Origin: Escherichia coli
GTDB lineage: Bacteria > Pseudomonadota > Gammaproteobacteria > Enterobacterales > Enterobacteriaceae
Length of the DNA: 2,543 bases
Assembly: GCF_024298765.1 (NCBI RefSeq)
Contig: NZ_CP101218.1
Reading direction: 5' to 3' (one strand)
Under the pieces are notes generated by a model that had not been told where the DNA came from, did not search any database, and saw nothing but the letters and a program-made list of their open reading frames with translations. Made by a program: the position numbers and the translations under genes. Below are positions 1 to 2,225 of the stretch, piece by piece. Each line of letters begins with the position of its first letter. Positions within the stretch are counted from its first letter, which is position 1.

Positions 1-133
1 TGTCGAAAAGTTGCAGCGGAAAATGGGACAGGATGTGTATTCGTCATACCGCGAATACATTCGCTTGCATGAGAATACCTCCTGTCAGGGCAAGCCCCGA
101 CACCCCAAACGTGCAAAATGGAGAGTCATTGCG
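1..133 (+). promoter_or_regulatory. Leader region upstream of mobC; candidate operator or oriT-like (bom-like) region
   Basis: Seen in sequence: 14-bp palindrome GCGAAT-ac-ATTCGC (51-64), GAATAC direct repeat (53-58, 73-78), 9-bp palindrome CCTGTCAGG (81-89), and the 12-mer GCCCCGACACCC (94-105), which I recall as also present in the pBR322/ColE1 bom region. SD-like GGAGAG (119-124) lies 9 nt before the ATG at 134. The same frame is open back to position 2, so this region could instead be coding. Confidence 0.25.
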
Positions 134-559
134 ATGACTAAAAATAAACGTAGTGGTTCAGAAGTACGGCAGAGAACTAAGGTTATCACCCTTAGAGTAA
201 ATAACAGAGTCGCAAGCGAAATCAGACGGCGAGCGAAGAACGAAGGACTGACAATTTCAGAATATATCAGGACGGCAAGTTTAAATAATGAAATAAAACA
301 GCGCGTACCTTCCAGGTATTTAGATGAATTAATCCGACTTGGTCGGATGCAGAAGAAATTATTTGATAAGGGAAAGCGGCCGAAGGATAAGGAGTACCTC
401 GAGGTGATGCATAAAATAATTTTACTTTGCGATGAAATGAAAATAGTAACGAAGCGAATTTCTGATGTATATAATGAAATGGATTTAATAAAGGATGAAA
501 TAAAAATAATAAAAAGGATACATAAAGATAAATATCCAGGTTCGGATTTATTCAAATAA
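134..559 (+). CDS. mobC: Ribbon-helix-helix DNA-binding protein, MobC/MbeC-like plasmid mobilization accessory protein (141 aa). The frame is open to the window start, so alternative starts at ATG 23, TTG 11 or off-window cannot be excluded.
   Basis: ORF track frame 11..559. ATG at 134 is preceded by GGAGAG with a 9-nt spacer. The N-terminal basic tail followed by RTKVITLRVNNRVASEIRRRAKNEGLTISEYIRTASLN fits the RHH beta-strand/helix/helix pattern (R-x-I-x-L-R-V ... G-L-T-I-S-E-Y-I-R) typical of MobC-type relaxosome accessory proteins; the C-terminal half is charged and helical. TAA stop at 557-559. Confidence 0.6.
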   Translation: MTKNKRSGSEVRQRTKVITLRVNNRVASEIRRRAKNEGLTISEYIRTASLNNEIKQRVPSRYLDELIRLGRMQKKLFDKGKRPKDKEYLEVMHKIILLCDEMKIVTKRISDVYNEMDLIKDEIKIIKRIHKDKYPGSDLFK

Positions 560-755: not shown

Positions 756-1307
756 TTAACTAGATTTATCCTCTTGTTTTTCAATTGTATTTTTTCTCTC
801 AATCACAGTTGTAAACGCGATTCTGTCACCATTAAAAACAAAGTTAGGGTTAATGAAATACCTTCCTTGTCGCATTGTTTTTGCAATTATTTTCGCTTTT
901 TCCAATTCATTAAGACCTCGCTTAAAGGTTGCAAGACTTAGTCGTAATGGTTGTTTACTCGCAGAAACTTGGCACTGAAGAAACGCTTCTAAAACTAAGG
1001 TATCCAAATCAACTTCGTCTTTTGAGAGTGCAGAGTTCTGAACGGACCAAACTAAAACACCGAAGGCTTTAATTCCCGCAGAAGATAGCTCAAAAGTTAA
1101 GCCAATATTTGCTGTAAAAAGTTTTACAAACTGTTCGCTATCAACACGTTTATATGTTGTTACGTGAGTACCTTGAACCTCACCTGTGTTCTGATTGACC
1201 AGGATGTTATCATCACGACCTAGACGCGAAAGCCTAACTTGCTTCCCCTTGACAGGTACAACCATTCCTTCTAAAAATGGGTTTTCTTTATAGCGACCGA
1301 AGCTCAT
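756..1307 (-). CDS. repL: Plasmid replication initiator, RepL family (winged-helix DNA-binding), 183 aa
   Basis: ORF track 756..1307 (-). ATG at 1305-1307 on the minus strand is preceded by AGGGGTG (SD-like) with about a 5-nt spacer. The protein carries motifs I recognise from RepL of staphylococcal pSN2-type plasmids and phage P1 RepL: NTGEV near the N-terminus, a central FVKLF...GL segment, and a C-terminal LNELEKAKIIAK...YFINPNFVFNGDRI (compare LKILEEGNIIKRK...LMLNPELLMRGDD). Family assignment is from memory, not a search. Confidence 0.8.
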   Translation of the reverse strand: MSFGRYKENPFLEGMVVPVKGKQVRLSRLGRDDNILVNQNTGEVQGTHVTTYKRVDSEQFVKLFTANIGLTFELSSAGIKAFGVLVWSVQNSALSKDEVDLDTLVLEAFLQCQVSASKQPLRLSLATFKRGLNELEKAKIIAKTMRQGRYFINPNFVFNGDRIAFTTVIERKNTIEKQEDKSS

Positions 1308-1338
1308 TTTTCACCCCTAAAATGATACGCAGAAGCTA

Positions 1339-1367
1339 ATCATAGATGCGGGGTAGCTCAAAAACAA
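1339..1367 (-). promoter_or_regulatory. Candidate sigma70 promoter for repL (-35 TTGTTT, 17-bp spacer, -10 TATGAT), overlapped by an inverted half-iteron
   Basis: On the minus strand: TTGTTT (plus coordinates 1362-1367), 17 nt, TATGAT (plus 1339-1344). Predicted start near 1332 gives a leader of about 25 nt containing the SD. The inverted half-iteron GTAGCTCAA (1353-1361) sits in the spacer. Confidence 0.3.
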
Positions 1368-1412
1368 GCATAATTTTGAGCTACGGTAGCAACAGGATTG
1401 AGCTACCGTAGT
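1353..1412. repeat. Iteron-like repeats upstream of repL: two 15-bp direct repeats 22 bp apart plus an inverted half-copy
   Basis: TTGAGCTACGGTAGC (1376-1390) and TTGAGCTACCGTAGT (1398-1412) match at 13 of 15 positions with a 22-bp period. Each has internal dyad symmetry (GCTAC-N-GTAGC). GTAGCTCAA (1353-1361) is the reverse complement of the first 9 nt. Confidence 0.55.
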
Positions 1413-1476: not shown

Positions 1477-1510
1477 ACGGTAGTGCGTACGTGCTCAATT
1501 TAGCTACCGG
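1477..1510. repeat. Degenerate additional copies of the GCTAC/GTAGC iteron motif
   Basis: ACGGTAGT (1477-1484) and TTAGCTACCGG (1500-1510) match parts of the 15-bp iteron. Between them lies the palindromic core TGCGTACG. Confidence 0.3.
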
Positions 1511-1515
1511 TTCTT

Positions 1516-1573
1516 TTCCGCTTCCTCGTCGATTCGCTCACTACGTTCGGTCACCGACTTGCGGCGAGCGGTA
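1516..1573. other. Primosome-assembly-site-like segment (ssi/pas) resembling the region just downstream of the pMB1/ColE1 origin
   Basis: Window sequence TTCCGCTTCCTCG...CGCTCACT...GTTCGG...TGCGGCGAGCGGTA shares, in the same order and orientation, an 11-13-mer, an 8-mer and a 14-mer with the pBR322/pUC backbone (CTTCCGCTTCCTCGCTCACTGACTCGCTGCGCTCGGTCGTTCGGCTGCGGCGAGCGGTATCAG) as I recall it. Not verified by a search. Confidence 0.4.
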
Positions 1574-1595
1574 ACAACACTCGCGCATTGCCGTC

Positions 1596-1621
1596 GATCC
1601 CGTTTTTGATCTGCGACGATC
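1596..1621. other. Cluster of three GATC (Dam) sites within 26 bp
   Basis: GATC at 1596-1599, 1608-1611 and 1618-1621. The window has 7 GATC in total, none in the first 1415 bp and 6 between 1416 and 1727. Confidence 0.5.
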
Positions 1622-1697
1622 GCGCCGTTTGAAGGCCTCAGGAGCACCAGAACGCGTTTTTGAGGGTCTGTCAGGGGTTTGGGCGCCTTTGGCCCTT

Positions 1698-1710
1698 AAA
1701 CGCGCTCAGA
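1698..1710 (+). repeat. 13-bp direct repeat AAACGCGCTCAGA, copy 1
   Basis: Exact 13-mer also found at 2076-2088, 378 bp away. Confidence 0.9.
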
Positions 1711-1739
1711 AGCTCCCAGACGCGATCAAATGCCAACAG

Positions 1740-1755
1740 ATGCCCGTCAGGGCAT
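1740..1755. repeat. Perfect hairpin ATGCCC-gtca-GGGCAT
   Basis: 6-bp stem (1740-1745 with 1750-1755) and a 4-nt loop. Confidence 0.7.
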
Positions 1756-1932
1756 GGGAGGCGCGAAAAATGCTTACAGAGGCTCTCAGGAGGTCAGGCG
1801 CGCCGATACCCCTAACCAGGGGCTTTCAGGTCGCCAGGAACCGCGCCAGCCTCCTGCAAAGCCGATTAGCACGGAACAGGAAGCTACTCGGTTGGGAGGA
1901 GGTCGTAGACCGTCGGTGTTGCAGCGATGGGG

Positions 1933-1986
1933 GTCTGGGGTACTCCCCAGACGGTTTCCGGTTGCGCTCAAGGCGCTGCCGGAACC
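1933..1986. repeat. Tandem GC-rich stem-loops
   Basis: GTCTGGGG-tact-CCCCAGAC (1933-1952) is a perfect 8-bp stem. It is followed immediately by GGTTTCCGG...GCGC-tcaag-GCGC...CCGGAACC (1953-1986), an 8-bp outer stem with one bulge plus a 4-bp inner stem. Confidence 0.7.
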
Positions 1987-2075
1987 GTGGCGGCTTCGGT
2001 GGTGAAGGGTGAGCGCGTTTCCAAGAGGTTCTCGAGACAACGGCATGACTGAACTGAACAGATGGAACGAGGAAG

Positions 2076-2088
2076 AAACGCGCTCAGA
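2076..2088 (+). repeat. 13-bp direct repeat AAACGCGCTCAGA, copy 2
   Basis: Exact copy of 1698-1710. The related motif CAGACGC occurs at 1717-1723 and 2085-2091. Confidence 0.9.
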
Positions 2089-2110
2089 CGCTTTGTAGCG
2101 CGCTTTTCTG
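2079..2110 (+). terminator. Weak terminator-like hairpin followed by a T-run on the plus strand
   Basis: CGCGCT (2079-2084) pairs with AGCGCG (2097-2102) around a 12-nt loop, followed by CTTTTCTG (2103-2110). The large loop and short stem make this weak. Confidence 0.2.
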
Positions 2111-2225
2111 TGTCAGGCAAGTTTGTTGTGTCTTTTGCCTTTCAGGTTGTCAGCAGCTGGCGGAGCACTGCACGGGGATTAATGCTCCCATTGCCAGGAT
2201 GAAATAAAGATTAGGAGCGACGTTA

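Follow-up and report, generated by a model that had tools for sequence, protein, structure and literature searches.

The window analysed here, 2,543 nucleotides of Escherichia coli DNA (contig NZ_CP101218.1 of assembly GCF_024298765.1), is a complete circular 2.5-kb plasmid encoding a RepL-type initiator and a NikA-like protein (the relative AP026524 joins position 2543 to position 2), and the element in question is a 13-bp sequence that its GC-rich non-coding region carries twice in direct orientation. Each of the two 13-mers belongs to a dispersed, GC-rich stem-loop unit, of which it forms the sequence-constrained arm (core AAACGCGC); the two copies of this unit, units 1 and 2, are independent of one another, forming neither an obligate pair nor the ends of an insertion. 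They lie on either side of a conserved 310-bp block, close to a hairpin that resembles the primosome assembly site (pas) of a site for single-strand initiation (ssi). From our point of view, the units are best explained as accessory elements of a Rep-independent single-strand initiation region, an explanation that we favour tentatively and with somewhat less than even confidence.

The repeat as part of a stem-loop family

An earlier note on this DNA had reported an exact 13-bp direct repeat, and this was borne out: AAACGCGCTCAGA is found at 1698-1710 and 2076-2088, both on the plus strand, the likeness extends to 16 of 17 bases between 1698-1714 and 2076-2092 (repeat family D6), and a third copy with two mismatches lies on the minus strand at 2008-2020. 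Other parts of that description needed adjustment. The heptamer CAGACGC, said to be repeated beside each copy, does occur only twice in the window (1717-1723 and 2085-2091), but its second occurrence overlaps copy 2 rather than lying beside it. The notion of a bracketed GC-rich core is roughly right, except that the GC-rich stretch (approximately 1400-2200) contains both copies and that the interval between them consists of the conserved block (1711-2003) and arm C of unit 2. Likewise, the repeat is non-random as had been supposed, but an exact 13-mer is by itself only moderately unlikely to arise by chance: when the whole window was shuffled 500 times with its dinucleotides preserved, 5.2% of the shuffles contained an exact direct repeat of at least 13 nt, and for the 701-nt GC-rich core the figure was 1%, such that the exact repeat, taken alone, is at most suggestive of non-randomness. 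The motif family is the stronger signal, as GAAACGCGCTC with at most two mismatches occurs five times in the window (at 1650, 2011 and 2098 on the minus and at 1697 and 2075 on the plus strand), where 0.4 occurrences are expected and 300 shuffles yielded a maximum of three. A chance repeat in GC-rich, CGCG-rich DNA, to which the whole-window shuffles lend some room, is hence hardly credible in view of the core shuffles, the five motif copies and the recurrence and covariation of the same arms in unrelated plasmids.

In both units a B-type arm, which includes the 13-mer, pairs with an inverted arm upstream of it (Table 1). Unit 1, situated between the ssi/pas hairpin and the block, is a 19-position stem of arms E (1641-1659) and D (1698-1716) with a 38-nt loop; unit 2, which abuts the other end of the block, is formed by arms C (2008-2021) and B (2075-2088) around a 53-nt loop, arm C and 2075-2086 making a perfect 12-bp stem. 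Both stems are present in all four minimum-energy folds (both strands, with RNA and DNA parameters; z scores of -2.3 to -3.7). A degenerate further arm, A, is not conserved in other units as far as their sequences can be read by eye.

A hand-anchored arm alignment of 18 units from 10 plasmids provides the main evidence for pairing. In this alignment 74.7% of the cells pair, compared to 15-44% when the register is slid, 17 double-sided changes are seen where 7.5 are expected, and the covariation score is 0.132 versus 0.081, neither of the latter two values being reached in any of 500 shuffles. Within the E:D stem of unit 1, one compensatory change from a G:C to an A:T pair was found at 1641/1716. 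The core AAACGCGC is invariant in the B-type arm of all 18 units while the partner arm varies, and this invariance fits the persistence of copy 1 even where arm E is absent: arm E belongs to an optional insert of approximately 55 nt that is found only in the window and in the compared loci L001, L006, L030, L050 and L055, and almost every lineage retains copy 1 at the edge of the block, IncX4 with the reading AAACACGCTCAGAAGCTCTCAGACGC.

One could imagine that the motif is instead a duplex site bound by a protein of the host or by a plasmid protein of wide distribution, AAACGCGYTC then being present in both orientations and the complementarity of the arms being a by-product. The invariant core with its degenerate partner arm, the conservation of copy 1 without a partner, the five motif copies where 0.4 are expected and the occurrence of the motif at the same place but in opposite orientation in Arsenophonus would all be in line with such a site. 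We nevertheless consider it very unlikely, as the excess of compensatory double changes points to selection on pairing rather than on two independent sites, the spacing of the arms varies from approximately 25 to 55 nt, and the motif-bearing plasmids have no protein in common. We also know of no E. coli factor with an AAACGCGYTC site.

A 10-nt near-tandem repeat (GCTCAGA / AGCTCCCAGA, window 1698-1723) follows copy 1. L006 lacks these 10 nt and thereby reads AAACGCGCTCAGACGC, the same 16-mer as copy 2 of the window, a difference that looks like slippage at the CTCAGA/CCCAGA repeats.

Neither insertion ends nor an obligate pair

It had been proposed in the earlier note that the two copies could be the boundaries of an inserted or duplicated segment, a pair of recombination sites, or repeated protein-binding sites in an origin. 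With regard to the first possibility, a synthetic empty-site query (left flank, one 13-mer, right flank) gave no spanning match among the 72,556 plasmids of PLSDB, the records of this collection that match both flanks always carry the block in between, and no other part of the region is as conserved or as widespread as the interval between the copies, in contrast to what would be expected of a variable mobile element. The two copies also do not behave as a functional pair: hundreds of related plasmids (pKL1-like 1.5-kb plasmids, L006, IncX4) have copy 1 only and are otherwise collinear throughout the block, and a copy 2 of the window's type (cassette version V1, see below) is present in only about 28 PLSDB records compared to 791 for the block. 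Collinear relatives with a single copy are the very result that the earlier note had named as arguing against such a pair. Recombination sites found no support either, as the window holds no recombinase, no transposase and no Xer core.

A target-site duplication around an inserted or duplicated 378-bp segment, or a site-specific recombination pair, would be suggested by the direct orientation and exact identity of the 13-mers and by the coincidence of copy 1 with the left end of the shared block. Either is nonetheless extremely improbable, given the missing empty site, an interval that is usually accompanied by one copy only, a right block end at 2003 rather than at copy 2, and the lack of recombination genes and sites just mentioned. 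Copy 1 does stand at a mosaic boundary, the left edge of the shared block, and could in this sense be a recombination-prone patch of homology. Of the idea of protein-binding sites in an origin, the association with origin DNA holds; binding sites specific for a Rep protein (iterons) are improbable, given that the motif is found together with no fewer than six unrelated Rep genes and also in ColE1-type plasmids without a Rep protein.

The ssi-like hairpin, the conserved block and the variable cassette

The anatomy of the region was resolved by alignment of 15-29 homologues. At its left end lies the pas-like hairpin, of which window positions 1513-1573 are 80% identical to the ssi region of ColE1 (1307-1367) with the same polarity, and the stem of which carries a compensatory change (GTCGAT/ATCGAC versus GCCCAC/GCTGGGGC); it thus combines similarity to a characterised ssi with a conserved stem-loop structure. 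A cluster of GATC sites follows the hairpin and precedes the optional insert that contains arm E. The pas is found 190-245 nt to the left of the block core and in the same orientation in 14 of 14 carriers, with the rep gene co-oriented with the pas strand.

The block matches 791 records in PLSDB and is non-coding. Substitutions are distributed evenly over the codon phases (21/20/22), no frame is open in all homologues, open reading frames are broken in L005 and others, and no Pfam match was obtained, for which reasons a protein-coding block was rejected. In NZ_CP026493.1 (L004), a 194-aa 'rep protein' is annotated over the pas and the block (1-585); this annotation is probably spurious.

The block is the only sequence common to the records typed as Col(MG828) and is, on this comparison, apparently the target of that replicon type. 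The pas-plus-block module is combined with at least six unrelated or barely related Rep-like genes, namely those for RepL, pKL1-like helix-turn-helix proteins, two further small proteins, the IncX4 initiator, the Rep protein of a 5.2-kb Shigella plasmid and a RepA with a PK-repBA leader. Rep genes are exchanged between otherwise near-identical backbones, and all carriers examined, down to a size of 1197 bp, encode a Rep-like gene. One such exchange concerns the window and L002, in which the rep gene and its iteron-like repeats are swapped as a cassette (window 756-1411 versus L002 871-1368) between backbones that are otherwise 96-100% identical, the pas-plus-block module staying in place.

To the right of the block follows a variable cassette with three mutually unrelated versions. 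V1, which holds unit 2, is present in the window, L005, L056 and pGF4-G (a plasmid of E. coli GF4) and as a remnant in the IncX1 locus L009. V2 has a hairpin homologous to that of V1 with compensatory changes (GAGGCGCGTTTCCGG / CCGGAAACGCGCC) and a copy 2 that reads AAACGCGCCCTGA, whereas V3, the version of pKL1-like plasmids and L006, has no copy 2. In V3 of L004, L006 and L032, the aligned position (approximately 2065-2100) shows a different hairpin with a conserved GTTAAC loop and compensatory changes in its stem (ACGT..ACGT versus ATGT..ACAT).

Units outside the block

The stem-loop unit recurs in ColE1-type, IncF and rolling-circle plasmids and in pPCP1 of Yersinia pestis. It thus also occurs without the block, with two units in pPCP1 and with arrays of four to five units (TGAGCGCG(T/A)(T/A)TC, 25-55 nt, then GAAACGCGC) beside transfer origins (oriT) of the R64 type. 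The arrays are hosted by ColK/ColE1-type plasmids of 6.7-11 kb, an IncFIA/FIC plasmid and a Rep_1 rolling-circle plasmid, and their units lie directly beside one member of a pair of R64-type oriTs, which are inversely oriented and have an ANR-family gene between them. This two-oriT arrangement is seen in L061, L062, L063 and L064 (for example in L061 at 6114-6188 on the plus and 7376-7450 on the minus strand) and resembles the one reported for pBuzz. The match in pPCP1 raised the possibility that the units are stem-loops of RNA I/II, which was rejected given their location upstream of rop and approximately 1.5 kb from the real RNA I.

The arrays are related to the cassettes of the window's relatives. 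V1 is 76-79% identical to the units of L057/L058, and the loop of V2 (CAAACCATCCCCATGG) is homologous to that of an L057/L058 unit whose stem differs by compensatory changes. In NZ_CP075673.1, moreover, 166 nt at the cassette position are 100% identical to units of L058 (H178), from which it follows that this position exchanges sequence with the unit arrays.

Such exchange would also be expected of a selfish or neutral repeated palindrome without function, which spreads and is homogenised by recombination or template switching and merely marks junctions, the identity of the two 13-mers then reflecting recent common descent or gene conversion. We take this as a serious alternative, albeit a rather improbable one. 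It would account for the variable copy number (four to five units in arrays, two in pPCP1, one or two here), for the mosaic exchange with L058, for the clustering of homology breakpoints at copy 1 (1692-1698), for the slippage deletion in L006 that leaves the 16-mer of copy 2, and for the decayed IncX1 remnant. It does not readily explain that the arms covary and the core stays invariant over divergent units, or that the units have a fixed placement and orientation beside ssi and oriT, and these tiny plasmids carry no cognate transposase or RAYT-type gene.

Strand and orientation

Several lines of evidence point, if modestly, to the minus strand. The pas sequence AAGCGG has its polarity on this strand. 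One-sided changes in the units are of the type that leaves G.T on the minus strand (A.C on the plus strand) in 20 cells versus 6 for the reverse (p = 0.009 by cells), and changes of this type favour the minus strand both in the E:D stem (7 versus 1) and in the block hairpin h1 (2 versus 0). The z scores of the folds are slightly in favour of the minus strand; as RNA, the minus sense folds with a z score of -3.70 and the plus sense with -2.31. The nick motif of the plasmid's oriT, ACACATCCTG^TC (^, nick position, which we take to follow the R64 consensus), likewise belongs to the minus strand, by which the GC-rich region falls within the leading 0.5-1.1 kb; if the R64 rule is applicable, it is presumably the minus strand that is transferred, the AT-rich spacer entering first and being followed by unit 2, the block, unit 1 and the pas. 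Relative to the direction of RNA II, the units of pPCP1 and pDETEC83 are oriented as in the window. A general rule linking unit orientation to fork direction was also considered; it holds for the window and the ColE1-type plasmids, fails for L062 and is thus equivocal.

Proposed function

We propose that the units would fold whenever the minus strand is single-stranded. Being the strand with the active pas polarity, it would be the lagging-strand template or the displaced strand of RepL-driven replication, and transfer from the plasmid's own oriT is predicted to involve this strand too, unit 2, the block, unit 1 and the pas then entering a recipient in this order. The stem-loops may then serve as accessory structural elements for complementary-strand priming.

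A number of observations weigh against this proposal. When the strand bias of the one-sided changes is counted by distinct events instead of cells, it shrinks to 7 versus 3 and is not significant. The ColE1-type contexts share synteny and hence do not represent independent tests, the units of the Rep_1 rolling-circle plasmid L062 are opposite relative to the strand that is usually displaced, and in consensus folding of the block both strands score alike with little covariation. In most lineages copy 1 persists although its partner E is missing, such that pairing cannot be the sole constraint on it, and in L005, the closest relative with a V1 cassette, copy 1 reads AAACGCGCTCAAA, so that exact identity between the two 13-mers is not maintained. 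A blastn comparison with 50,697 phage records further revealed no similarity to complementary-strand origins such as those of G4, alpha3 and St-1, a result that is not decisive given that plasmid G-sites are only weakly similar to phage origins; mislabelled plasmids of 1.4-1.9 kb (see below) were all that matched among these records. The accessory stem-loop mechanism is, finally, one that we infer, priming and a function in the single-stranded state being predictions.

It can also be imagined that the region acts as RNA. A minus-sense transcript from 2200 to 1640 would fold into B:C and D:E stems and, as B matches D and C matches E, might re-pair into C:D and B:E and thereby enclose the block, which could make it a conformational switch or a processing stem, comparable to the way in which ColE1 RNA II adopts alternative pairings. 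Such an element would suit the fold scores and the G.U-compatible changes that favour the minus strand, the position relative to the pas, which matches the ori-to-ssi spacing of ColE1, the sequence AAAAACGCG at 1664-1656, which resembles AAAAACGCC of the ColE1 ori, the hypervariable segment adjoining a conserved body, and the location of the block directly after the rep gene and on the same strand in pKL1-like plasmids. We regard it as quite unlikely all the same, since neither a promoter nor a terminator was found in 1300-2543, Rfam detects RNA I in ColE1, pPCP1 and pDETEC83 but in no variant of the module, arm C of V2 covaries with B and not with D, many lineages do without arm E and many without the C/B unit, and a rep gene is present in every carrier. 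As to terminators, no short-loop GC stem with a T run was found in 1300-2543, the B:A stem having a 12-nt loop and a weak T tract.

Beyond the role as accessory elements of single-strand initiation that we favour, one could speculate that the AAACGCGC units constitute an undescribed family of plasmid single-strand signals, which would act in priming or protection and double as homology patches for module shuffling, and that the 310-bp block is a new Rep-independent lagging-strand origin. In such a scenario, which we consider unlikely but worth stating, the units would sit at the two sites where small enterobacterial plasmids become single-stranded, one next to the ssi/origin block and the other within the leading region of R64-type oriTs.

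In this context, it is of interest that the putative target of the Col(MG828) type is non-coding and yet common to plasmids with unrelated initiators. If the block and its units were a generic module for complementary-strand initiation, this would explain why the 'replicon type' does not track the rep gene, how tiny cryptic plasmids swap their rep and oriT cassettes, and how plasmids without a relaxase become established after transfer. If the units were merely selfish palindromes, the finding would be an ordinary one. The ssi and the replicon type are of already known kinds, and no description of the conserved block or of the AAACGCGC units was found in the searchable literature, the coverage of which excludes the pKL1 papers of 1997 and 1999.

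Comparison with known systems

Origins of the ColE1 family are described as consisting of RNA I/II, oriV, ssi and terH (PMC5935869; PMC2831885). The stem-loop of the window resembles the ColE1 ssi, a phiX174-type primosome assembly site (n'-pas), and lies approximately 80-130 nt from copy 1, a spacing comparable to that between ori and ssi in ColE1. It differs from the described ColE1 ssi in that the 13-mer units and the 310-bp block are additional and in that it goes with Rep-encoding replicons instead of an RNA II primer. The resemblance extends to an approximately 550-nt structured GC-rich stretch upstream of the ssi, to AAAAACGCG at the would-be ori and to a hypervariable distal segment; unlike ColE1, however, the window has no RNA I, no promoters that could be found and no similarity outside the ssi, and all carriers have a rep gene. 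In Rfam searches (E <= 1), no RNA I was detected in the window or in 17 module-bearing loci, whereas the positive controls ColE1, pPCP1 and pDETEC83 were found. With only the ssi similar on alignment and no RNA I by Rfam, an origin of the ColE1 RNA II/RNA I type was rejected.

Plasmids similar to pHW126 carry a palindromic, non-essential ssi beyond their iterons, the loss of which raises the copy number and causes multimers (10.1101/2022.12.05.519187; PMC2831885). The window shares with pHW126, pIGRK and pIGMS31 a RepL-family initiator, iteron-like repeats upstream of rep and an ssi beyond these, and the order ssi, iterons, rep is retained (pas 1482-1575, repeats 1376-1411 and 1498-1509, repL 1307-756). 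Those three plasmids are AT-rich, and neither a GC-rich block nor AAACGCGC hairpin units have been described for them.

As far as the citing work relates them, the ssi clusters of F, R6K and R100 (Nomura et al., 1991, as cited in 10.1101/2022.12.05.519187) provide a further parallel. Like these and the single-strand origins (sso) of rolling-circle plasmids, the module is structured, non-coding, fixed in orientation, independent of the Rep type and exchanged between plasmids whose Rep genes are unrelated, and it is predicted to lie on the strand that becomes single-stranded. In contrast to them, it has no sequence similarity to phage complementary-strand origins. To our knowledge, long loops (25-55 nt) combined with a conserved arm sequence have not been described for known types of sso or ssi.

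The window has the oriT type of the two-oriT module of pBuzz-like and ColE1-type plasmids (Moran and Hall, as cited in PMC9282650, to the extent given there), together with a NikA-like gene, and differs from that module by having one oriT and, instead of an array, one unit to either side of the origin block. Hairpin units are not mentioned in the accessible literature on this module.

A short similarity also exists to the cer/Rcd region of ColE1 (L003 3885-3910), where GAACGCGTTTT, the same 11-mer as the core of arm E, is located immediately 5' of the XerC arm, and where 8-bp GC-rich inverted arms approximately 50 nt apart are followed by GTTTTAGCG as in some units, a likeness noticed on inspection. 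A cer-like site in the window was rejected, as a pattern scan finds the XerC/XerD core in ColE1 and L057 and not in the window.

Other features of the plasmid and of related records

The features of the window are compiled in Table 1.

Table 1. Features of the 2,543-nt plasmid, with the basis on which each was assigned
Feature	Position	Strand	Basis and remarks
R64/pEC34A-type oriT	~20-110	-	Inverted repeat GGGGTGTCGGGGC..GCCCTGAC; ACACATCCTG^TC beside a 7-bp inverted repeat; read from the sequence
NikA-like relaxosome accessory gene	134-559	+	Pfam, 9.5e-17
repL-family initiator gene	756-1307	-	Pfam RepL, E = 3.4e-7, 30.4 bits (cut-off 20.3); annotated RepL in pGF4-G
Iteron-like repeats TTGAGCTACsGTAG upstream of repL	1376-1411, third copy 1498-1509		Repeat families D4, D14
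GC-rich non-coding region	~1480-2200		Composition
ssi / primosome-assembly-site-like hairpin	1482-1575	-	GAGGAAGCGGAA on the minus strand
Arm E	1641-1659	+	Inverted copy of D, upstream arm of unit 1; inverted repeat I5, 19 nt, 79% complementary
Conserved GC-rich non-coding block	1692-2003		88-92% identity across plasmids with unrelated backbones
Arm D (13-mer copy 1)	1698-1710	+	B-type arm of unit 1, left edge of the conserved block; exact match
Variable cassette V1	2004-2143		Holds unit 2 (arm C and copy 2); three variants V1, V2, V3
Arm C	2008-2021	-	Inverted copy, upstream arm of unit 2; inverted repeat I19
Arm B (13-mer copy 2)	2076-2088	+	B-type arm of unit 2; exact match
Arm A	2096-2106	-	Degenerate third copy; local pairing with B (6 bp plus GAAA/UUUC); motif scan and stem list

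Among 5,426 complete E. coli genomes, pGF4-G is the sole full-length match to the window, with 99.2% identity and both 13-mers kept. The oriT of the window is of the same type as that of L058 and lies directly upstream of the NikA-like gene, and there is no relaxase on the plasmid. With an R64-type oriT and a NikA-like gene but without a relaxase, the plasmid should depend on mobilisation in trans; its relatives are classed by MOB-suite as 'non-mobilizable'.

Several related records contain the module in other settings. L052 (NZ_LR890201.1), a 29.8-kb plasmid with a type IV secretion system, has three copies of an approximately 180-bp block core (window 1751-1928) at 1501-1678, at 2357-2534 and at a third place, two of them flanking ccdAB, with no pas adjacent. 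In L010 (NZ_CP107158.1), inverted pas-like copies (489-576 on the plus and 2476-2569 on the minus strand) flank a repA gene with the PK-repBA leader pseudoknot of Rfam, the block core being located approximately 400 nt downstream of repA. Three records labelled 'Escherichia phage' (OR844749.1, OR844798.1 and OX638291.1; 1.4-1.9 kb) are 85-88% identical to the pas-plus-block module and, judged by this match, look like pKL1-type plasmids and not phages. The module is further found on contigs of 0.4-2.3 kb (L015, L016, L020, L025, L029, L031-L036, L041 and L045-L049) in assemblies labelled Streptococcus, Streptomyces, Mycobacterium, Clostridium, Flagellimonas, Rhizobium and others, where it most likely represents contamination; the scan of genome contigs mostly returned these small plasmids again, as contaminants, and contributed little further diversity.

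Finally, a perfect 14-bp inverted repeat with a 2-nt loop (AAATAAGGTCTTTT / AAAAGACCTTATTT) is located at 562-591, between the convergent mobA and repL genes, and likely acts as a bidirectional terminator.

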